Source: Dictyostelium discoideum (Eukaryota). Taken from it: a stretch of 64,000 bases of DNA. This document shows, piece by piece, positions 43,500-63,453 of the stretch (the first letter of the stretch is position 1; the number at the start of each line of letters is the position of its first letter). The position numbers and the translations under genes are program-made. The stretch spans positions 2,432,001-2,496,000 of the forward strand of contig CM000153.2 of NCBI GenBank assembly GCA_000004695.1, read 5' to 3'. Below the pieces are notes generated by a model that had not been told where the DNA came from, did no database searches, and was given only the letters and a program-made list of their open reading frames with translations.

Positions 43500-45179
<1,680 letters not shown>

Positions 45180-45292
45180 TTTACTAAAATAATTATATAT
45201 ATATACATATATATATATATTTTTTGTTATTGCACACTAGTAAATAATCATTTTTTTTTTTTTTTTTTTTTTTATGACCCTTGGTCACTTAC

Positions 45293-45327
<35 letters not shown>

Positions 45328-45532
45328 AAAAACAAAATTAAGAACTTAAAAAATTAAAAAATCTCAAAAAAATAAAAAAATTTATATTTTAAAAAGTATT
45401 TACGTTTTTTTTTATTTTTGTTATTTTAATATATATCTTATTATTATTTAAGAAGTGAAATAAATTTTATTCCCTCTAAAAATTTTTTTTTTTTTTTTTT
45501 TTTTTTTTCCCACAAAAAATTAAATAATAATT

Positions 45533-45895
45533 TTATTCATTTTTACTGCCATTTGGATATTTTCTTTCACCATATGCTGATATATAGTTTATATCATAGT
45601 CTTTTGATTTAATAATTTGTTTTAATTGTTCAATTTCTTTTAATTTTTCTTTAAGGATTGAAACTACCAAGTTACTGGAGATATGGTAATCACCATTTTC
45701 TAAACCATCCAATTGTGAGGGATGAGTAATATTTTTATATGCATTTGGTTCTTCTAATGGAGTATTTGATAACCAAGTTTCTTTATTATCAAATTCAACA
45801 GAACATAAATTTTTATTTTTTAATGCATCATTTAATTGATTTGTTGTTTCAATTCTAATTTTTAAATTTTTTTTTATATAATTTAAAATATCCAT
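45533..45895 (-). CDS. Small protein (120 aa) paralogous to the N-terminal domain of the 43500..45179 gene
   Basis: The likely true start is MDILNYIKKNL… at 45895 (the listed ORF begins earlier in poly-K/F from AT-rich sequence). It shares …HPSQL…ILKEKLKEI… with the neighbouring gene (…NHPSQLKKYNF…ILSEKLEDI…). Confidence 0.45.
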   Translation of the reverse strand: MDILNYIKKNLKIRIETTNQLNDALKNKNLCSVEFDNKETWLSNTPLEEPNAYKNITHPSQLDGLENGDYHISSNLVVSILKEKLKEIEQLKQIIKSKDYDINYISAYGERKYPNGSKNE

Positions 45896-45906
45896 ATTTT
45901 TTTTTC

Positions 45907-45942
<36 letters not shown>

Positions 45943-46050
45943 GTAATAAAAAAATAAATGAACTAAAATAAATAAATAAATAAATATAAAAATAAAAAAA
46001 AAACAATAGTTCAAAAATTGATTTGGCAAAGATGAAAAATAAAAATAAAA

Positions 46051-46084
<34 letters not shown>

Positions 46085-46885
46085 AAATACAGATTTAACA
46101 CAAATATTGTGTTTTTTTTTTTTATTATTTTTAATCCAAAATTAGTGTGTTTTTATTTTTATTTTTATTTTTTTATACATAATTTAAAATTTTAAGTCAA
46201 GTCTTGAAAAAATGGGTGTTATTATAATAATAATTTCAAATACATTTTTGTAAAAATAGATTCTCATAGATGTAGTGAAGTTATATAATTAAAAGAAAAA
46301 AAAAAAAAAAAAAATTATCTCATTTTTTAATTTTCAAATTTTTTTAAACTACTATTTTTTTTTTTTTTTTTAATTAATATTATTATTTTAATAAAATAAC
46401 CATTATTATTTATTATTTTTAGGATGTTTTTAAAATAATATTAATTTATTAAAATTATAATTTTTTTTTTTTTTTTTTATCCATTACAATTTTCAATAGG
46501 AAATTTCAATTTTTTTTATTTTTTTTTATTTTTTTTTTTTCTCCAAGTTCCAAAAATTCGAAATCGGTGATAAAAATAGGACAATGTTGAAAAAACGATA
46601 ATTTTTTTTATTTTTGTAACTTGGTAACCCACCCAACACACAACAAATAAAATAAAAAAAATATAAAAAAATAAAAAAAATAAAAAAAATAAAAAAAAAA
46701 CAATAATACCACAACAAAATTTAAAAAAAAAACAATAATAAAAAAAACAACAACAAAAATAAAATAAAATAAAAATTAATTAAAAATAATAATTACAATA
46801 TTGTAATTATTATTTTTACAGATTGCTTCCAAAAAAAAAATAAAAATAAAAATAAAAAAAAAAATAAAATAAAATTAAATAAAAA

Positions 46886-46934
<49 letters not shown>

Positions 46935-47164
46935 TCTACCATAATGAAAATATTATTGTTTTATTAATTTTTAATTTTACCATTTTAAATAAAATTAAAT
47001 AAAATTAATTTTTATTTATAATTTGAATAAAATTAATTTTTATTTATAATTTAAATAAATCTTTAAAAAATATAATTTTGGAATTAAATAAAAAAAAAAA
47101 ATCTAAAAAATAAAAAATTTTGTTTAGAAAAAATAAAAAAAAAAATTAAAAAAAAAAAAATAAA

Positions 47165-48976
<1,812 letters not shown>

Positions 48977-49016
48977 TTTAACAAATAAAAAAATATATAT
49001 ATTGTAAAGAAATTAA

Positions 49017-50785
<1,769 letters not shown>

Positions 50786-51004
50786 TCCAATTGATTTTTT
50801 TTTTTTTTATTGAAATTTTTATTTTTCACTTTTTTTTTTTATTTTTTTAATTTTTTTTTTTTTTTTTAATTAATAATGTTAAAAAAAAAAAAAAAAAAGG
50901 TTGTAATGTTGTTACTTTTAAGTAAATTTTTTGAGCGTTGTCATGTTTTTTAGTTTCTAAAACCTCATTTATTGAAACTCGAATGATTTTTTTTTTTTAA
51001 AAAA

Positions 51005-51095
51005 ATGGACCTTGAGGGGATCGATCCCTCCCTGCCAGTTTGCGGAACTAGAATGCAACCTATACATCAAAGGCCCGTTGGGACATGAGCTGCCT
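51005..51095. other. Isolated about 90-nt GC-rich island containing the 12-bp palindrome GGGATCGATCCC; unexplained
   Basis: ggaccttgaggggatcgatccctccctgccagtttgcggaactagaatgcaacctatacatcaaaggcccgttgggacatgagctgcc. Its size and GC content are like a small RNA gene. I could not fold it as a canonical tRNA on either strand, and there is no DUSE motif nearby. Confidence 0.2.
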
Positions 51096-51194
51096 TAAGA
51101 AAAATTTTAAATTTAATAGACATAATTTTAATTAAAAGAATATATAAATAAATGTTTTATTTATTTTTTATTATTGTTAACAATTTTTCTATTT

Positions 51195-51584
51195 TTAATT
51201 TTTAATTTTAAATTTTTCTATTTTTCTATTTTTATTTTTTAAATTTTTCTTGATATGACTAAAATATTCTTTATAAAATTGTTCAAGTTTTAATATCAAT
51301 TGTTCCCTTTCTATTTTCAATTGTTCCCTTTCTATTTTCAATTGTTCCCTTTCTATTTTCAATTGTTCCCTTTCTCTTTTCAATTGTTCCCTTTCTCTTT
51401 TCAATTGTTCAATTATTAATTCCAATTGATCGTTTTCTTGTTCCAATTGTTGCATTTCTTGTTCCAATATTTCCGGTATGTGATTTGAGTAAGTAACTAC
51501 TACTGTATTATTTGTAATATCTATTGTATTTTCAGCAAGGAAAAACAATATAATGAAATCTAAAATATAAAAAAAAAATTTCAA
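51195..51584 (-). CDS. Small protein (129 aa) with N-terminal hydrophobic signal/anchor and a heptad coiled-coil made of (EREQLKI)n repeats
   Basis: ATG-initiated. 24-nt tandem repeat caattgttccctttctattttc ×5 at 51298-51420. Unknown function. Confidence 0.4.
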   Translation of the reverse strand: MKFFFYILDFIILFFLAENTIDITNNTVVVTYSNHIPEILEQEMQQLEQENDQLELIIEQLKREREQLKREREQLKIEREQLKIEREQLKIEREQLILKLEQFYKEYFSHIKKNLKNKNRKIEKFKIKN

Positions 51585-51811
51585 ACTATTAAAATATTTT
51601 TACCCCTTTTATTTTTTATTTTTTATTTTTTTTTTTTTAAATTTTAAATTAATAAATTTAGTAATATCCATTTATATAGTAAATTTTAATAAAGGGTTTT
51701 TTAATTGAAACAGTTGTTTAAAAAGAAAAAATATTATAATAAAAAATATAATAGGAAAATATTAAAAAGAAATACATTTTTATTAATAAGAAATTAGTTT
51801 TATTTATTTTA

Positions 51812-51845
<34 letters not shown>

Positions 51846-51988
51846 AAATACTTTTTATTAATAAGGAATTTGTTTTTTTTTTTAAAATGATATTTCAAAA
51901 ACATAGTTTAAATTTATAAATAAAAATGGGATATAAAAAAATAATTTATTATTTTATTCCATTAATTATTTTAAAAAAAAAAAAAAAG

Positions 51989-54128
51989 ATGAAACAACTC
52001 TTTTTATTTATTTATTTAATATTTGTTTATTTAATTAATACTTCATTTTGTCAAGTTTATCCAAGTGGAGAAATTAAAGATATTCAAGGAAACTGTTTAA
52101 CTTCTCCAAATAATGTGGGTGAAATAATCACAATTGAAAATTGTTTTGATTCTCAATCAACAAATAAGTCACAACAACAATGGATATTCTCATTAGGTAA
52201 TAAAAACGTACCAACTCTTCAATCATTAAATGGATTATGTGCTGAAATTTCAAATAATAATTTAATTACAATTCAATGTACAACAATATATAAATCAAGT
52301 TCATTCTTATCAGTTCGTTATATTGAAGGTTCATTCATAATTAAATCAGTAATGTCTCAATCATGTTTACAAAGTCCTTTTAAAATTGGTGAATCACCTT
52401 TTTTCACATATAATTGTGATGCTGATGAAAATCAAAAGTTTTTTATTGATTTAACTTCTAAATCATTTTGTAAGTAAAAAAAATAGGAACTTTAAAATTT
52501 TTTTTTTTTTAAACATATTAATAATTTTTTATTATTATAAAAAACAGTACCTGTTTATAATCAAAAAAAAATTCCATTGACCATGTCATCAAATATAAAT
52601 TATTTCCTTGATAGTATGGAAGTAAATGCTCAATCTGGTGTATATAAAGGTTGGGAAAGAAAATTACCAGGTTTTTAGTAAAGTTTAATACTGATTGTAC
52701 TCTAACCATTTCTGATGATAATTCAGTTCTTTGGAAAAATGTTGATGAACCACCATCAGTTTGTAAACCTTCTGCTGTCTTAAAATTACATAATGATGGT
52801 AAATTATGTATATATAATCATGAAAATAATCCAGTTTCAAGTTGGTGCTCAGACTCTAAATCATTAGGTGGTCGTTATTACCATATGGTTCTTATGGAAA
52901 AAGTAAGTGAAAATAATAATTTTTTATTTTATTAATTTAAATTTAATTATAAACTTTAAAGTAAAAAAAATCAATTTATTTAATATTAATTACAATAATA
53001 TATATTAAGGATGGGGATTAGTTATTCAATCAGAAAATGGTGCAATGGTATGGGCAAAATGGGGTGAATCAATTTATCCAGATGCAAATTATAATTTAAT
53101 TCCTGGTAGCTACTTTGATGAAAATTATGGAATTAATACTAATAAATATATTACAAATGGAAGGTAAAGTATATTACATGTTCTAAGTTTAAATTTTCAT
53201 TAATTTTAAAAACAAAACTAATCATATTCTTTCATTTTTATTATTAAATTTTAAAAGAGATTTTTTATATTTTAATATAAAATATGGATTACAATATTTT
53301 ATTGGTAATCCAAATATGCAAGGAATACCTAATAGAGCTTGGAGTTCAATACCAGAACCAAGTTATGGTGAACGACCTGTTACATTAACATTATATATTA
53401 ATAATGATAATGTAACTATTCAAGGAAAAAAAATAATAGAAATAAAAACCCGAGACCTTACTGGATGGAAACACATTTTAATAGATGTTACATTATGGAA
53501 TACTCAAATACCATTGAAAGGTTGTAAATTCATTCATTTACCAATTTTAAATCAAAATGATTATGATAATTGGGGTTGGGTAATTAAAAATAAAGGTTTA
53601 AAGATTATATATGGTAATTTTAATTATCAACCTACAAAAATTAGCTCTTCAAATAATTTCTTAATTGGTAGTCCAACCAATCCATTAAATCCAACAAAAC
53701 AATTATATTCAGATATTTTAAAATTCGAATTACGTCCTGATGGTGTTTTAGAATTTAGAAATTTAATTACTGGTGAATTATTGTTCCCATACTCATATTC
53801 ATCTGTTTTAATACCAACTAGTGGTAATGGTACAAATCAATGTCCAAATAGAAAATATTTAGGTTATTGGGATAATGATAATAATTTAAGTATTAAAGTT
53901 GTTGGTTGTGAAAAGTATAGAGATACTTGTAATAAAACTGATTCAATCCAATGTAGAAGTAATCCACAGCTATGTAATGAAAATGATAATAACAAATGTT
54001 TTACTTATTTCACTTTCTTTCCAAATTGTTACCAATTTGGTCAAGCATCATTAGTAATTCAATATGGACTTCCTGAAATTATGTTTATTAGCTATGATAA
54101 TATTTTAGTTTCAAATTATTTGTATTAA
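51989..54128 (+). CDS. Secreted lectin-like protein: ricin-B/beta-trefoil-like N-domain (QxW) + bulb-type (B-)lectin domain + Cys-rich C-terminal domain; 4 exons (51989..52473, 52650..52902, 53010..53163, 53258..54128); the exon 2/3 junction is out of phase, so possibly a pseudogene or a sequence error
   Basis: Signal peptide MKQLFLFIYLIFVYLINTSFCQ. QQQWIF. B-lectin motifs TISDDNSVLW, KLHNDGKLCIYN…NPVSSW, (D)GDLVIQSENGAMVWA. Exons 1 to 2 (phase 2) and 3 to 4 (phase 2) are consistent. Exon 2 ends in phase 0 at a perfect GTAAGT, while exon 3 only reads in the conserved frame if it starts in phase 1. The exon sum is 1763 nt, which is 2 mod 3. Confidence 0.5.
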
Positions 54129-54259
54129 TTTTTTAAAACATGTTTAACATATGTATAAAAATAAAATAAGATAGATCTTTATAAAATAAAACTAATAGTT
54201 TTTGAATTAAAAAAAAAATAAAAAATAAATGATACTAAATAAAGATTTTATTATTATTA

Positions 54260-56180
54260 TTATTGTGGTGGTGGTGGTAAAATATCAACTGGAATAAAAG
54301 TTCTTGGAGGATTTGGAGGTACTCCAATACTTTTGAAATAACTTAATAATTGTCCTGGAATTTCTTTTAAGGTTTCTTGAGCTAAAGCATTAATATTACC
54401 TGAATATTTATTGAATGGTACAAATTGAACGATATCTCTTTTAGCTCTATTACCTTTGTAATCCACTAAACAACCATTATCACCATCTAATAAATTCATA
54501 TTTTCAAATGAACTTAAACCTACACCAACAATTACAACTGATAATGGTAAATTTGATGCTTGAACTAAACATTTTATAGTTTCATCCATATCACAAATTT
54601 CACCATCAGTTATGATTAATAAAACTGTATATTTTTGTTGATATGGTAAACGACTTTCTGAAGCTCTAGCAATTGCTTCTTGAATAACTGATGCAAAATT
54701 AGTTGGACCACTAAATGGAATCTTTGAGATGTTTCTATTATACATTTCTAAAACACCTGCTACACCAAAAGCTGATGGAACATTTGGATCCAATGAAAAT
54801 GGGAAACAATGTGATGTACGACCTTGATATTCACCACCAAATCCAAATACATCAATAAAACCATCAGAATCATATGATGATAAAACACCTAAATTATTTT
54901 AAAAAATTAAAATAAAAAAAATAAAAAAAAAAAGAAAATAAATTAGTAATTAAAAAAAAAAAAAAACTTTAAAATAATAAATAAAAAATACAAACTTCCA
55001 ACAGATGCAATTGAACGTGCATAAGCACTACCACCCTTTTCAAGATCATTATAATGAAGACCTGAAAATGAATTAACTGAACCATTACTACCTGTACAAT
55101 CGATTGCTGTCATTAATGAAATTTCACAACCACCTGCTAAAAATTCTAAAAAGGTATGAGTCTTTTCTAAACGAACTTTATAAAACTTTAAGATACCACT
55201 ATTTTTGTAACCAGATTTTGAGGTTTTCTTTGGATTAATTAATGGATATTCAATGACACCTCTAAGGATTGCATCGGTTGTTGTACGTGTGATACCAATT
55301 AAATCATGTGCACCAATACTATCATAATCATAAACTTCAATTAAAAGCTCTCTAAACATATCACCCCCATTAAATTTTTCCAATTCCATGTGTAATTCTG
55401 GCCAAAGTGGATTAACATTACTTTTAATAACAATACTTTGGAAAACTAATAATTGTTCACCATTTGGATTGGTTTTATAGATTTTATAATATGGATCTGA
55501 TGAAAATAAATCTTTTTTATCAAGACCAATACCTTCAGCACTTAAAAAGATATGATGATTGGTTTGACAAATCTCTTCTGCTGAAATTTCAATTTTACCA
55601 GTAACTTTACTATGATGAATTAAATCTGCAACAATTTTTCTACCAGGTCTTGATAAAATATTTGATAATGATGTTGTCTTTTTTTTATTTAAATAAATAA
55701 ATAAATAATAAAAATAAAAATTAGTAAATAATTTTATTATTATTATTGTTATTTTTTTTTTTATTTTTTTTTTTTTTTAATACTCACAAATTCACCAATT
55801 TTATCATTTTTATCTAAATCACCAAACAATGTGATTTCTTTATCAATATCCATAACAGTGAATGTTAAGGTTTGGATTTCTTCAAAATAATAATCGAGAG
55901 TAATGGTTTTTTTAAATTCTGGTGATAAATTGTTTTTGATTTTTTCAGTACAATCAACAAATTGGAAACCTCCTGGACCTCTCTTTTCACTAATAAAGAT
56001 TTGTGGATCAGATTTACTAACGATATCTAAAATAAATAAAAAATAAAAAAAAAGAATAAGTAAAACATGAAAGTTGGAAAAAAAAAAAAAAAAAAAAATT
56101 GTTTAATTACCTAAATTCTTTAAATGATGACATCTGAATCTTAATTCAACTCTTGAATTTGGTTTTGACGATGGTATCAT
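54260..56180 (-). CDS. Copine (two C2 domains + vWA domain) (4 exons: 56111..56180, 55788..56026, 54996..55677, 54260..54888; about 539 aa)
   Basis: N-terminus MIPSSKPNSRVELRFRCHHLKNL (C2A start). C2B …ELLIEVYDYDSIGAHDLIG…. vWA …LMTAIDCTGSNG…YTVLLIITDGEICDMDET…LSVVIVGVGLSSFENMNLLDGD…RDIVQFVPF. The exon sum is 1620 nt, which is 540 codons. Donors are GTAATT, GTGAGT and GTTTGT. Confidence 0.8.
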
Positions 56181-56251
56181 TTTTATTTATATATTTATAT
56201 ATTTATATGATGCAAGTATTTAATAATTGAAATACAACGAAAAGAATTTTT

Positions 56252-56289
<38 letters not shown>

Positions 56290-56605
56290 AAAAAAAAAAA
56301 AAAATCTACTTTGATCAGTTTTGTGTCAGTTGATTTGAAAAAAAAAAAAAGATATTTATAAAAATAAATTTTTTTTTTTTTTTTTTTTTTATATTTAATT
56401 TTATGCTAATTGGTGTTAGTTTAACGAAAATGTGATAAAAAATCTTAAGAAAAGATTGAATATATTACCAAAAGTTGAGATAAAATTGGGAAATAAAAAA
56501 AAAAAAATTAAAATTTTTTATCCAATGACCAAAAATAATTTTTTTAAAATATTAATTTTACATTTCATCACCAAACTTTTAATTATTAATTTAATGGTAA
56601 TAAAT

Positions 56606-56645
<40 letters not shown>

Positions 56646-56839
56646 TTATTTAATATTACACACATAGGTGAGTTCATATTTTTTTAAATTGTTGTGGTGG
56701 AGATAAATTTAAAGAATAAGAAATTGTTTTACTCTTTTATAAATTTTTTTTTTTTTTTTTTTAACCTAGAGCTTTTATACATTTATTACTTTTTTTTTTT
56801 TTTAAAAAAAGTTTAATTATTTAAATTAATTCTATTATT

Positions 56840-57259
56840 TTAAGACATAAAAATACCTGATGGTTTTTCACCTTTAGCTTGGAGTTGCATTGTTTGTTGG
56901 TGAACAACACATAATGTACAATAACATACTGCACAAGAATCACCACAAAAATTACCATCAATACCATGTTTTTCTCTAATTTGAGAACGAGTTAAGCAAG
57001 TAACTAATGGGAAAAAAAAAGTAGCCAAAAGGCAATCAGTAGCCTCACACTGACGATTATCCACAGTTGCTCTCTGTTGCATAATTTGTAGGCCCTTGAA
57101 ATGAATAATGAAAATTGAAAATAAATATTCATTCTTTGACAATTATTAATATTGTTTGGAAAAATAAATAAATAATTAACTTACTGGCCATAAATAACTG
57201 ATACAACAAACTCTACAATCAGATGTACAATCGCATAAACCGTGTTCCCAATTTGCCAT
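56840..57259 (-). CDS. PLAC8-family (Cys-rich, FCR/cell-number-regulator-like) small protein (2 exons: 57185..57259, 56840..57133; about 122 aa)
   Basis: Exon 1 MANWEHGLCDCTSDCRVCCISYLWP|GTAAGT. Exon 2 contains …DCLLA…CGDSCAVCYCTLCVVHQQTMQ…, the PLAC8 Cys pattern. The intron is only 51 nt. Confidence 0.55.
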
Positions 57260-57685
57260 TTTTTTATTTTTTTATTTATTTTATTTGTGTTTAGATAATG
57301 ATTAAAAATAAAAAAAAAAAACTTTCCTTTTATACTTAAAATTTTTTTTTTTTTTTTGTTTTTTTATTAAATTTTTATTTTTTTCTTTTCTTTTCTCAAA
57401 ATTGTTCTAGTTTTGATTTTCTAAAAAAAAAAATCTTTTTTTTGGGGTTTCAAAAAAAATTTTTGAAAAGGTAAGAATTTTTTTAAAAATTTGCTTTTTC
57501 AAGAAAAAAGGTATGAAAGTCTTTCTTATTGGATGCCAAAATTAAAAAAAAACATAATTAAAAAATAAAAAAAAAAAACAATTGCGATATTTTTAATTTC
57601 GAAACACAAAAAGTCGCTTTTTTTTTGGTTTATAAATTAAAAAAACACTTCAAATAAAAAATTCTAATAAAAGGAGGTGATTTGC

Positions 57686-57728
<43 letters not shown>

Positions 57729-57742
57729 TTTTTTTTAATTTT

Positions 57743-59196
57743 TTAATTATGGTTTTTAGAATTGATTAGATTTAATAATTCAGTGTCCCAATTTAATAGT
57801 TTTGATAGGTTGAGAACTGATTCTTGACAATCACCAATCATTTTGAAATCAAAATTTTTATTATTATTAAAATTGAAACCACCAAAACTATTTTCACCAA
57901 CAATTTGATTATTTATTAATAATCTTGGGATATTTTTAAAATGAGGAAAGAAATGAACCATTGATGCAATTGGTTGAACTTTTAAAGAGGTACCAATCAC
58001 AATTAGACAATCACATCTATTAATATCGTCAAGTATATTTTGATTAAATATTGGTGGTAAAGATTCACCAAAGAAAACAATATCAGGTTTAATTACAGCA
58101 TTATTACATTGAACCACTTTACAACGTGGTACAACACTTTTCAAAGGATCATTATTGAAAATTGAATCTTTAATATATTCTTGAGAATATTCTAAACCAC
58201 AATTTGTACATCTTGAAACTGCAAAAGAACCATGAGCTTCAATTAATTTATCCAATGGTATACCAGCTATTCTTTCAAGTGTGTCAGCATTTTGTGCATA
58301 ATTCCTTAACAGTAATCCTTTATCTGATAAAAGTTTAATAAAATAATGAACTGGTGTACATTTAAATTTACCCGATGGGTAGAGGTCTTTTGAAAGTTGA
58401 TAAAATGGTTCAGGATTGAATTTAAAATAATCAATATCAAACACTGCCTCTTTAAATGGTAATTTAAATTTTGAAACATTTTCATTATTATATAAACCAG
58501 TTTCAACTGATCTAAAATCTGGTATACCACTCGCAACTGAAATTCCAGCTCCTGTCAATACAATAATATTCTTACATTTATCATTTTTAATTAATTTTAT
58601 AAATTCTTTAATTTTATTATTTTCAATTTCAATTTCATTTTCAATTTTAATTTCATTTTTAATGATATTACTATTCTTTATAATATCTTTAATTGAATTA
58701 TCAATTGAGTCGAAATTTTTATTATATTTTAAATTTCTTTGATCATAATAAATGAATAATTTCATTACTTTGAATAAATTTTCAATATCTTTTAATTTTT
58801 TATTTATTAAATCACTATTTTTGGTGCATTTTTCAATCATTGTTGATTCTTTAATTAATTCATTACAATCATTACACCATAATGTTTTATCATCACCATG
58901 AAATATTTTAAAAATTGAATGATTGGAATGTAATTTACAATCTTCCATACAAACAACAATTCCACATTCTAAACAAATTAAAATATTATCTTGACTTGAA
59001 CATTTATAACAATTTGGTATTGTTACTTTTTTTTTTTTTTTTTTTTTTTTTGTTAATTAACAAAAATTTTATTGATTTTTAAATTAAAATATTAATAATA
59101 TAACTTACTATTTTCATTATCATATAATTGAATATCAATTGATTCATAATTTATATTACAATTTTCAATATGTACACATTGTGTTTGTTTTGACAT
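57743..59196 (-). CDS. Sir2-family NAD-dependent deacetylase (sirtuin) with an N-terminal ZnF-UBP-like zinc finger (2 exons: 59109..59196, 57743..59025; about 456 aa)
   Basis: Sirtuin motifs IIVLTGAGISVASGIPDFRS, QNADTLE, HGSFAVSRCTNCGLEY, CKVVQC…IKPDIVFFGE. Upstream in the same frame is CYKCSSQDNILICLECGIVVCMEDCKLHSNHS…WCNDC (C-x2-C…[LI]-x-C-L-x-C-G ZnF-UBP pattern). Exon 1 MSKQTQCVHIENCNINYESIDIQLYDNEN + A|GTAAGT. The acceptor …aaaag| is phase 1. Confidence 0.7.
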
Positions 59197-60640
59197 TTCC
59201 AATTTTATTTGTTTATATGTTCAATCAATAATAATAAAAAAAATAAAAAAATAAAAAAAAATAAAAAAAAATAAAAAAAAATAAAAAAAAATAAAAAAAA
59301 AAAAAGATTTCTCATTTTTTGACCATTTTCAAATGCCTGGCTGATGTCAAATTAAAGAAGTTAAACCAAAGCAATTTGTGGTAATTGATCGCAAAAACGA
59401 TAGACATGTCTATTGCAAAAATCATGATCCAAATCACCATAAAGTTGATCAAGATTCTTCTCTCTCTTAGCGTAGGTTAATCATGCTCTTGGTTGGGCTC
59501 TCACAGCTAATACACTGGAAAACATAATTTAAGAATATTCATCATTTTTTGAGAGATTTTGCTTAGGGTAATTAAAAAAAAGATATTATATTTTAATAAT
59601 ATTTATAACAATAATATCAGTAATTAATAAAATTTAAATAAAAAATAATTAAAAAATGATAAGATTTAAGAATTCTTATTAATAAATAATAATTTATTTC
59701 TCATTTAATAATAAAAAGTTAATATATTTATCATTTTATGAGATTTTATGCTAGGGTAATTTCTCACTTTTTATAACATAATATTATAATTTAATAATAT
59801 TTTAAAACAAAATAATACAAATTATTATAAAAATTAATACATTTATTAGGTTGTAGAAAATTTTACTATTGTAATATCTCATTTTTTAAAATATAATACT
59901 ATAATTTAAAAATATACAAACCAATTAATAAATAAAATATCAAATATTATTAATTTATTATTAAAATATGATAAAAAATAATCAAATTGTAATAAATGTT
60001 TAAAATAATAAAAAAAAAATCAATAAAATATAAGAATGTTAATTTAAATTAAACAATTTTTTTCTTATTTTATTATAAATATTATTAACAAAAAATGTTC
60101 CTAATTTTTTTTTTTTTTTTTTTCCAAAAAGTAATAAACATGTGTGACCACCAAGGATATTATGAATGCTCAAAGAAGTTTGATTTTAACAGGGGATTTA
60201 ACTGGAGACCTCGAAAATTTCCCAGTTATTAAAAAAGAATGTACTGAAGACTGCAAAAAAATGATGATTGAAATTGTTGAAAAAACATTAAGAGATTTTA
60301 CTACCATAGCCACAAATTACTTTAAAGATGCTAAAATTGGAATAAAAAGAAAGGATGAATGTGATGGTGTTAACTATTTCTTTATTGTTGTGGAGAGCTT
60401 GATGATGAAGAAGATCATGAATTTTTAGAAGACGTAGAAAAAGCGATGAATGTTAAAAGAATAAATGGAAAGGTAGTTCATTTAAATAACCAAGAGAATG
60501 ATAACAAATTAGAATCTTCAACCAATAAATAAATAAATTTATATCTCTTATATAAGAGATGTAGTTTATTTTTTTTCTTTAAATTTTTAATTTTTAATTT
60601 TTTTTTTTTTTCTTTTTATTTTTATTTTTTTTCTTTTTTA

Positions 60641-60790
60641 ATTTCTTGCACCTCTTTTACGTGCAAAGTTACCAGGTTTGGGTATATATCGTCGAGCTTC
60701 TTGTGCAGTTGCATAAGTTCTAATTGGCTCTTGTCTTTCTCTGTTTCTTTGCAATCGTCTTCTTTCACTTGTTTTAGTCAAATTTCTATT
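60641..60790 (-). CDS. Possible terminal exon of an unidentified basic protein (…TKTSERRRLQRNRERQEPIRTYATAQEARRYIPKPGNFARKRGARN*)
   Basis: A moderately GC-rich block in an AT-rich spacer. It is a clean minus-strand reading frame ending in TAA at 60641, preceded by an …aaaatag acceptor near 60790. No upstream exon or ATG was identified. Confidence 0.2.
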
Positions 60791-61101
60791 TTTATTTTAT
60801 TTTTAATTTTTTTATTTTTAATTTTTTTTTCTTTATTCCAATGCCACCCAAATTAAAAAAAAAAAAAAAATAAAAATTTAATAAAATAAAATTTTTAAAA
60901 AAAAAAAAAAAAGTTATAACTTTGATAACTTATTTTATTTTTATTATTATTATTATCATCTATTTATTGTTGTTTTTTTTTTTTTATTTTTTTTTTATTA
61001 TTATTATTATTATCATCTATTTATTGTTGTTTTTTTTTAATATTTTATTTTCTTTATTTTCCTTAATTTTGAGTTTAACCACCTGCGGGTAAGATTTAAA
61101 A

Positions 61102-61135
<34 letters not shown>

Positions 61136-61583
61136 CATTTTTTTTTTTTTTTTTTTTTTTTTATAAAATTTTTTTTTTTTATAAAATTTTTTAATATTAA
61201 AAAATAAAAACCAAACAGATTCGCATATACACCCAATCAATCAATAATATCTTTCACTTTTTTTTTTTTTTTTTTAATTATTATTATTATTATTATTATT
61301 TTTTTTTAATGGGGTTTGGTCTAAAAAAAAAAAAAAAATTTTGTTCCAATCTGTTAAAAAAAAAAAAAAAAAATAATACAAAGAAATTTTAAAAAAAAAG
61401 AAAAAAAAAAAATAAAAATAAAGAATAATATATTTATATATAAAAAAAACAAAATTTTCTATTACTACACATAATAATAATAATAATATAAATATAAATA
61501 TAAATATAAATATAAATATAAATATAAATATAAATATAAATATAAATATAAATATAAATATACATATACATATACTGTAATTT

Positions 61584-63453
61584 ATGAGTCGTAAAGAAAA
61601 TTTAAATAGAAGTAGTAGTAGTAATAGTATAGAATTTAATAGAGATAGAGATAGAGATAGTAGTAATATCAGTAATAGTAGTAATATAAATTGTAATAAT
61701 AGTAGTCAAACTCCACCTATTCCACAACATAATAGTTTAAGTGGTAGGTCAAAGCATTCGTCACCAATACATAGTTTAAAGAAAAAAGGTTCATTAGTTA
61801 GACAAGGTATTGAAGATTTATTTAGTTCACTTAGTGTGGATACACATTCAAGTAGTAATAGTAATAATAATAGTAGTAGTAATAATAATAATAATAATAA
61901 TAACCATAATATTAATAGTTCATCGGAATCATCAACTCCTACAACACCAAGATCATCTTTTACACCTCAAGTTACAATGAATAGTAATCAAAGTAGTGGT
62001 AATAATTCACCTCAGTTATCAAGTAGATCTAGTTCACAATCAACTTTAATACCCTCAAATGAACCAACTGTATGTAGTAAATTAATAACCCACCCCACTT
62101 TTATAATTCTCCATATATTTATTTCCTATTACCATATAATTAACTAACAAATAAAATTTATTATTGTTATTTTTATTATCACTAAAAGAAATCATTGGCA
62201 AAATTTTTTTTATTAGCACAACAAGTTGATTATGTTGGTGATTCAAGTTCAACTTTATTACCAGTTGAAAATTTAGGATTATTAAGTATACAATGGAAAA
62301 CATATTTCACAATTGGATTGAATTCAACTACTACTGGATATGACGTTTTAAAATATATATCAATTAAAACTAATAGAGATTTAAAATCATTAACATTGGC
62401 AGATTCAGATGGTAAAATCATTGATAATGATTATATATTAACTCAACAACGTTGTAAAAAATTTGTTGTAGTTGAAGATTTAAATATTGATGATTTAAAA
62501 ATGAAACAATTAAATCATTTACAACAACTACCACCACCATCACAACAACAATTACCACCACCACAATCACACCAACAACAATTATTGCAACAACAATTAC
62601 AACAAAGATTACAAAATCAAAATCAAAATCAAAATAATAATTCAAATTCAAATTCAAATTCAAGCTCAAGTTCATCATGTTCAACACCACAATCTATAGT
62701 ATCACAACAACAAAAATTACATCAAATGCTATTAAATCAACAACAAATTCAATCATCACAAAGTACGACACCAACTAATTCATCACAAAAATCATCACCA
62801 AATAAAGTGACTGATCATCAACATGTTGAGAATTGTAATTTTACATCACCATCACCATCATCACCCTCTTCACCATCATCACCATCGAGTGGTATGATTT
62901 TGGATGGATTCAATTTGGATGGAAATGGTGGTAGACCTACACCATTAATTATAACACCATCTTCTCCATCATCTATGAGAAAGAATCCACCTGCAATTCC
63001 ACCAAGATCACCTTCAAGTTTTAGTGGTGGTAGTCCTTTAAATAATATTTTATTAAATAATACTGAATTAATTTCAGAACCTGTAACAACAACAACAACA
63101 ACAACAACCACCACTTCATCCTCATCATCATTATCAGTAACAACAACAATTTCAAATCCAAATTATACACAAAATTTACCAACAACACCATTATCTAATA
63201 GTAGTAGTAATAATAACAATAATGGATCATTTATAACATTACAAGATACTACAAATAATAAATCAATTATAAATAATAATAGAGAATCACCACCAGAATC
63301 ACCAATGGGTAGTAGAAAATCATCAGGTAGTTCAAATACAACATCATCTACTACTAATACCACTACACCATCATCATCATCATTAACAACATCATCAGGT
63401 AAAGAAAGTAGAGATAGAGATAGTAAAGATAAAGAAAAAGATTTAATTGGTAG

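Follow-up and report, generated by a model that had tools for sequence, protein, structure and literature searches.

The closest described proteins to the gene studied here are the monocot bulb-type (beta-prism II) lectins, such as gastrodianin (1xd5) and snowdrop agglutinin (1jpc/1msa), and, within Dictyostelium discoideum strain AX4 itself, the intact 626-residue product of DDB_G0276437 (Q86HW3, P0029), which UniProt names 'Bulb-type lectin domain-containing protein'. Here we describe DDB_G0284789, a paralog of the latter, located on the forward strand at positions 51989-54128 of the window, i.e. the whole stretch of 64,000 nucleotides (nt) of AX4 DNA that was analysed (G+C content of ~22%). 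The two paralogs have the same domain order and length class and occupy separate loci; the frame of DDB_G0276437 is uninterrupted, whereas that of DDB_G0284789 carries lesions of -1 and -10 nt. From the comparison with its relatives, we conclude that DDB_G0284789 is very probably a non-processed pseudogene that lost its function recently and belongs to a fast-evolving Dictyostelium lectin-like family.

In members of this family, a signal-peptide-like N-terminus is followed by a ricin-B-like region and a bulb-type-lectin-like domain, then by a hypervariable stretch and, at the C-terminus, a Cys-rich part. The family is small, with 19 representative proteins at E<=1e-3 in an exhaustive search. 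The family profile A1 matched the Protein Data Bank (PDB) entries 1xd5 (E=2.5e-6), 1xd6 (4.9e-6) and 1jpc (5.8e-5) over ~90 residues covering the second and third lectin subdomains, and the matches to the monocot lectins included DC.L...W, DGNL.IY and the final WA. In contrast to the monocot lectins, the family keeps no intact copy of the three QxDxNxVxY sugar-binding motifs, and sugar binding is putative; in the profile-PDB alignment these positions read NTDCTLTIS, K(K/H)DGNLCIY and ILPYGSYGKKWGLVIQ, the third motif being replaced by FNILPYGSYGKKWGLVIQ with a 5-residue insertion. The domain is also, unlike that of the monocot lectins, embedded in a protein of ~620 residues. With Pfam PF01453 (B_lectin), the frame-restored protein of DDB_G0284789 scored 22.3 bits, under the curated cut-off of 32.4, and the relatives fell below the threshold as well. 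A search of this protein with PF00652 gave no match, and only a weak match to CDtoxinA (E=0.038), which we take to be a ricin-B-like family, was found; the distant relative P0014, however, matched Pfam Ricin_B_lectin with 38.9 bits (cut-off 29) in the region equivalent to exon 1, where DDB_G0284789 has one QQQW. An AlphaFold2 model of the intact homolog P0002, built from a 9-sequence alignment, had a mean pLDDT (predicted local distance difference test score) of 32.9 and was unusable.

DDB_G0284789 (XP_638406.1, Q54P52, P0001), which is listed as a 577-residue hypothetical protein, was the best match of the frame-restored translation of 51989-54128. Eight relatives were found by protein search in four newly deposited D. 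discoideum-complex genomes; at the DNA level, eight homologous gene copies from the four diverged genomes (loci L001-L006) served as comparators and were aligned with AX4, giving nine gene sequences. The AX4 locus is syntenic with L001-L004 and with a further locus, L007, and lies between an XLF-like gene and the copine gene, while the loci orthologous to the paralog (L005:8001-10145 and L006:8001-10134) are flanked by MORN-repeat and EMC4 genes. The syntenic P0002 (ACTFIW_007210) and P0003 (ACTFIZ_000845), with 85% and 75% protein identity to the AX4 copy, respectively, are intact, have the same four exons and splice sites and adjoin the copine gene. For the paralog DDB_G0276437 the identity is ~60%, a value taken from its cluster representative P0009, which is at least 90% identical to it. 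The gene has kept its ancestral position, as judged by synteny with five other loci, as well as three introns with conserved GT-AG sites. Across the alignment the splice sites were conserved except for the intron 1 donor of copy R_c2, where GT is mutated to TT, and the exon 1 region was lost in L004. An exon model built from open frames and canonical splice sites broke frame twice, at 52672-52678 (CCAGGTTTTTAGTAAAG) and, close to the 3' end of exon 2, between the segments GGRY and LPYGSYGK. The homology-based exons total 1861 nt and, with a slash marking exon boundaries, the gene is organized as follows:

51989-54128, forward strand: DDB_G0284789, four-exon lectin-like gene, probable non-processed pseudogene (public-protein match and synteny).
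51989-52469, forward strand: exon 1, 481 nt, signal-peptide-like N-terminus and ricin-B-like region with QQQW; ATG and donor TTTT/GTAAGT kept in those comparators whose 5' end is complete.
52470-52547, forward strand: intron 1, acceptor ACAG/TACCTG, kept in 9/9 aligned sequences.
52548-52902, forward strand: exon 2, 355 nt (366 nt after restoration), containing both lesions and encoding the first two-thirds of the bulb-type-lectin-like domain.
52903-53009, forward strand: intron 2, 107 nt.
52903-52908, forward strand: intron 2 donor GTAAGT, conserved and in phase 1 in the intact relatives (DNA alignment).
53010-53163, forward strand: exon 3, 154 nt, intact, beginning GA TGG GGA TTA GTT = (R)WGLVIQ.
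53164-53257, forward strand: intron 3, donor GGAAG/GTAAA and acceptor AAAAG/AGAT, both conserved.
53258-54128, forward strand: exon 4, 871 nt, hypervariable stretch (~53270-53540) and Cys-rich C-terminal part, open to the TAA at 54126-54128.

The case for inactivation lies in two lesions in exon 2, for both of which AX4 was the sole one of the nine aligned sequences to lack the nucleotides in question:

52672-52676, forward strand: lesion 1, net loss of 1 nt, with the gap between 52674 and 52675 (nine-sequence alignment).
52676-52678, forward strand: premature TAG, in frame with the conserved splice sites, after 203 codons.
52876-52879, forward strand: lesion 2, junction of a 10-nt deletion (TATTTTAATA) 27 nt upstream of the donor; all eight comparators carry the 10 nt.

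At the first site, which lies in a run of five Ts, AX4 reads CCAGGTTT-TTAGTAAAG instead of the CCAGGTTTAGTAGTAAGG of the relatives, i.e. 14 nt compared with 15 nt in each of the eight comparators. The second site reads GGTCGT-TATTTTAATA-TATTACCATATGG in all comparators and GGTCGT-TATTACCATATGG in AX4 (GGTCGT directly followed by TATTACC), a loss between TATT direct repeats whose exact position is ambiguous within the surviving TATT repeat. At the protein level, the family members, including DDB_G0276437, read LPG[LF].VKFNTDC and GRYFNILPYGSYGK(K/R)WGL[VI]IQ at these sites, the sequences of the paralog being LPGLIVKFNTDC and GRYFNILPYGSYGKKWGLIIQ. The 10-nt loss removes FNI; in the comparison of the family profile with 1xd5 (E=2.5e-6), GGRYFNIL pairs with NGNYYLIL, and the lost segment aligns to the 'YLIL' of the third bulb-type-lectin subdomain, presumably a beta-strand. 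Restoring the gene takes two corrections, either +1 and +10 nt or, as a frame-only repair, two added Ts. With the conserved exon structure projected onto it, the reading frame is disrupted relative to intact orthologs and paralogs.

Both lesions were found again in L007 (GCA_054883475.1), whose gene (ACTFIT_006170, encoding P0028, the second member of the 90% cluster of P0001) was 100% identical to the window over the 2140 nt of the gene. Elsewhere in the 18.1 kb compared, L007 differed from the window by five substitutions and several homopolymer or microsatellite length differences, and it is therefore a genuinely independent assembly rather than a copy of the reference. Between window positions 43981-62166 and L007, homopolymer lengths differed at several sites, such as 56608, 57690 and 61124. 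A TAT repeat showed a gap of 24 nt at 49610 that was compensated by an insertion of the same size at 49699, perhaps an artefact of alignment. These differences are consistent with a sister laboratory strain or with uncertain run lengths in one assembly. With ~0.03% substitutions, L007 is probably a sister laboratory strain of AX4. Nanopore plus Illumina genomes, including laboratory strain AX2-214 and tropical 'possible cryptic species', have been published (Holland et al. 2025, PMC12745789); this study is the probable source of the five comparison genomes, and from it we infer that ACTFIT is AX2-214. If that is correct, both lesions would be older than the separate derivations of AX2 and AX3/AX4 from NC4. 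As a negative control, the copine exons showed only indels of multiples of three nucleotides relative to the four diverged genomes, all others being in introns or upstream of the ATG. Exact look-ups of P0001 and of the open reading frames (ORFs) 53316-54128 and 51926-52477 in Logan contigs returned no record.

One rival explanation is a sequencing or assembly error in the reference, or programmed ribosomal frameshifting. Lesion 1 does lie within a T run, and AGGTTTT with the TAG behind it bears a loose resemblance to a -1 slippery site. However, the assembly that is identical across the gene is an independent one, made by a hybrid long-read/short-read method (PMC12745789, if our link to that study is correct), lesion 2, a deletion of 10 nt, has no slippery sequence, and all relatives encode the protein in one frame, while AX4 would need two separate recoding events. 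We rejected programmed frameshifting, as two sites would be needed, the second of them lacking a slippery sequence, and consider error and recoding together to be highly improbable. Both lesions are real and not sequencing artefacts.

These data also change the reading of the exon 2/3 junction, where the original prediction had noticed a broken frame. The broken frame is genuine and can be reproduced; it had, however, been mislocated and half described. We found the donor GAAAAA/GTAAGT (GT at 52903-52904), the 107-nt intron at 52903-53009 and the exon 3 start at 53010 (GATGGGGATTAGTT; GATGGGGATTAG) as reported, and likewise the TAG at 53019-53021 upon entry in phase 0, the reading (R)WGLVIQSENGAMVWAKW in phase 1, and the correct joining to exon 4 in phase 1 only (TNG/R/DFLYFNIKYG, acceptor 53256-53257). 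The claim that exon 2 ends in phase 0, in contrast, is true only in the frame already shifted by the 10-nt deletion upstream. In all eight comparators and in the AX4 paralog, exon 2 ends GGA AAA A/GT (phase 1). As the relatives and the paralog all read GRYFNILPYGSYGK(K/R)/WGLVIQ across the junction, with LGGRYFNILPYGSYGK(K/R)WGLVIQSE in 8/8 relatives, exon 2 normally ends in phase 1, and the phase clash arises because the 10-nt deletion shifts the frame upstream. The alignment accordingly places the TAG at 53019-53021 out of frame and shows exon 3 to be unaltered.

The repair proposed at the time, one extra T giving GGGGATTTAG, is contradicted by the same sequences. Indeed, GGGGATTAG (or GGGG[AT]TTA[GA]) is kept in all eight comparators and in the identical independent assembly, and the whole exon 3 start, AAG/[GA]ATGGGG[AT]TTA[GA]TTAT, is conserved, with an exact match to AX4 in the closest copies, W_c2 and R_c2. 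Judging from these copies, GGGGATTAG is the ancestral sequence and no T is missing. Two of the checks that had been suggested, an independent assembly and a paralog, went against the proposal, with L007 matching the window at the junction, GGGGATTAG included, and the intact DDB_G0276437 supporting a phase 1 end of exon 2. A 1-nt assembly error in the T run is thereby refuted, the more so as the true lesion close to the junction, a loss of 10 nt, is no homopolymer miscount. One T would in any case not restore the gene, since two corrections are needed and the first break, at 52674/52675, had been overlooked; the single-T repair would give a coding sequence of 1862 nt under the conserved exon model and clashes with the conserved exon 3 start. 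The exon sum of 1763 nt was not reproduced either: we obtained 1861 nt for the homology-based exons and 1734 nt for the public AX4 model. The 'consensus-like' DGDLVIQ created by the extra T is a wrong-frame coincidence, as the family motif is LP[PY]GSYGK.WG[LI]V[IL]Q, kept at ~26% identity (LLPPGSYGKAWGIVLQ in the relative concerned). Repairs judged by eye are therefore risky, given that the wrong-frame DGDLVIQ looks closer to the domain consensus than the true K/R-WGLVIQ does. Of the explanations offered at the time, a very young pseudogene is supported by our evidence, though for other reasons and at other positions, and a mis-set splice site describes how the public AX4 model escapes the problem (donor 52907), but the conserved donor is the GTAAGT at 52903.

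That escape deserves attention, because the public 577-residue protein P0001 is the exact translation of the exons 51989-52469, 52679-52906, 53010-53163 and 53258-54128 (1734 nt). In this model, intron 1 is stretched to an acceptor (TTTTTAG/52679) inside conserved coding sequence, dropping 43 residues that include the start of the bulb-lectin-like domain, and the intron 2 donor is moved 4 nt downstream, so that -10 + 4 = -6 nt and the frame is regained, giving MEKVRWGLVIQ:

52907-52912, forward strand: non-conserved donor GTGAAA (GTAA/GTGAAA), used by P0001 and P0028, both of which models we reproduced exactly.

The model of the newer assembly, P0028 (606 residues), instead invents a 44-nt intron (52640-52683) for lesion 1. 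Peptides unique to each model are SFLKFNTDCTLTISDDNSVLWK (junction), YYHMVLMEK and VRWGLVIQSENGAMVWAK. Two pipelines have thus found two different escapes, neither on conserved sites, which suggests that the sequence holds no unique natural solution. Compared with the conserved exons, the 577-residue and the 606-residue models would both be annotation artefacts that skip the lesions.

The main rival explanation is that the gene is functional and that AX4 has acquired lineage-specific splice sites (acceptor 52678, donor 52907), yielding a 577-residue protein that lacks 43 residues and has an 11-residue stretch swapped for 9 others. This model has GT-AG intron borders and its translation equals the public protein exactly, the 10-nt loss and the 4-nt donor shift are together in frame, the replacement YHMVLMEKV keeps the hydrophobic pattern, and exons 3 and 4 are without stop codons. 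Yet its acceptor lies within coding sequence conserved in all relatives and its use removes the N-terminal bulb-lectin-like part (profile ~189-205). In Dictyostelium, GTAAGT is generally a stronger donor than GTGAAA, and the strong, conserved GTAAGT sits 4 nt upstream of the weaker site. The second pipeline moreover chose a different, 44-nt intron. We therefore regard functional lineage-specific splicing as unlikely.

Should the conserved splice sites be used, the 1-nt loss at 52674/52675 and the 10-nt slippage-type loss at ~52876 would break the ancestral frame, and translation would stop at the TAG at 52676-52678 after 203 codons, the first stop being codon 204 under the conserved exon projection. 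Two introns downstream of this stop would be the configuration expected for nonsense-mediated decay. We infer the loss of function in AX4, as well as the splicing and fate of the transcript, from the lesions. A different outcome would be a functional truncated ORF, in which the domain was lost and a secreted 203-residue protein (signal peptide, ricin-B-like region and short tail) retained. Exon 1 is intact, with a ratio of the proportions of nonsynonymous and synonymous differences (pN/pS) of 0.50 relative to W_c2, and the promoter-proximal region is the same in L007. However, the stop in the second of four exons, with two introns downstream, would again predispose the transcript to decay, no relative is this short (the fragments P0010 and P0011 are partial models), and the pN/pS of 0.5, which covers the time since divergence from W_c2, is mostly a record of the period preceding inactivation. 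Such a product appears to us unlikely, and slightly less plausible than the alternative splicing discussed above.

The inactivation is likely to be recent. The restored AX4 frame contained no stop codons, compared with 4.5-5.4 expected had the whole AX4-specific branch been neutral (P ~0.005-0.012; calculated from 382 one-step paths to stop and an AX4-specific synonymous branch of 0.035-0.042 under a rough equal-rates model). This absence of stops places the inactivation late in the time since AX4 and the nearest diverged genomes separated (synonymous divergence, dS, of ~0.10). The AX4-unique changes comprised 35 nonsynonymous and 9 synonymous ones. In the lectin-like part, pN/pS was 0.4-0.5 relative to W_c2 and 0.25-0.6 overall.

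Several observations nevertheless weigh against a pseudogene. First, the ratio of nonsynonymous to synonymous divergence (dN/dS) does not set AX4 apart from the intact copies: its pairwise value of 0.68 is within the range of 0.4-0.8 seen among intact members and throughout the family, and because the whole family evolves quickly, dN/dS cannot diagnose relaxation here. Second, a GT-AG-bounded ORF of 577 residues does exist, so that a shortened product would be possible, and the 203-codon truncated product, which would keep the whole N-terminal ricin-B-like region, could in principle be made. Third, L007 is so close to AX4 that its identity rules out a sequencing error but does not show how far the lesions have spread in natural populations. 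Lastly, we found no mention of DDB_G0284789, Q54P52 or XP_638406 in the searchable literature library. Taking these points into account, we still hold a recently inactivated, non-processed pseudogene to be the best explanation by far.

AX4 was not alone in carrying a disrupted copy. Under the conserved exon projection, W_c2, Z_syn, R_loc2 and Z_loc2 were intact, only the first two of these being syntenic copies, whereas the syntenic copies W_c1, R_c1, R_c2 and Y_syn have disabling changes of their own that differ from the AX4 lesions. A 2-nt deletion is found in W_c1 and another in R_c1, which also has a nonsense change. R_c2 combines the GT-to-TT donor change with a 1-nt deletion and a nonsense change, and the copy in L004 lacks its 5' end and carries a 1-nt deletion. 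Some single-base indels in these assemblies could be residual long-read errors, which is less likely for the substitutions. The locus thus appears to have been lost repeatedly. We also observed a tandem gene pair in two of the diverged genomes (L001:7245-12155 and L002:7281-12154) and one copy in AX4, L003, L004 and L007. Raw informative sites suggested that the AX4 copy was a fusion of tandem copies c1 and c2 by unequal recombination, joined at 52801-52848, i.e. a short distance upstream of the 10-nt deletion. When outgroups were used to polarise the sites, those in the 5' third that had looked 'c1-like' turned out to be ancestral, with no derived states shared with c1, and the fusion is not supported. 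The 3' two-thirds of the AX4 copy clearly group with c2.

At the start of exon 4, the hypervariable stretch (53270-53540; codons 336-425 in P0002 numbering) showed a pN/pS of 0.9-1.5 between syntenic copies, compared with 0.25-0.6 elsewhere. Two deep types exist in this stretch, 'NDSAVV' (W_c1, R_c1, Z_syn and the second locus) and that of AX4 and c2. Nucleotide divergence between AX4 and its closest copies reached 14.5% over 53100-53540, which includes intron 3, compared with 4-6% in the flanks.

Beyond the pseudogene candidate, the four-exon copine gene occupies 54253-56180 on the reverse strand, and its orthologous loci encode C2 plus Copine domains. Its identity was 97.3-97.5% to the two nearest diverged genomes and 93.5-95.6% to the other two, with in-frame exon indels only. 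A 21-nt tandem repeat (TCAATTGTTCCCTTTCTATTT) at 51296-51459, with 7.8 copies and 86% matches, varies in sequence between genomes; its counterpart in L001 (6224-6730, minus strand) has been called as a 168-residue gene and would be a heptad-like protein repeat. The AT-rich spacer also contains a GC-rich island at 51005-51090 (ATGGACCTTGAGGGGATCGATCCCTCCCTGCCAGTTTGCGG), conserved in L004, where it is annotated as the start codon of P0007; searches of the island for tRNAs and Rfam families returned none.

For curation, both public models merit a flag as pseudogene, or at least as disrupted, and the value of the finding lies mainly there. DDB_G0284789 would be an ordinary young pseudogene and, as an intact paralog remains, no biological surprise; DDB_G0276437 could buffer its loss. 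More speculatively, and with considerable doubt on our part, this secreted lectin-like family might belong to an arms race or recognition system, for example in binding bacterial prey, symbionts or other amoebae, with the null of AX4 and AX2 being one state of a presence/absence polymorphism and not mere decay. This idea stems from a pattern that is typical of genes in such systems, namely the ~90-codon hypervariable patch (pN/pS ~0.9-1.5), the changes in copy number and the independent knock-outs in several lineages.

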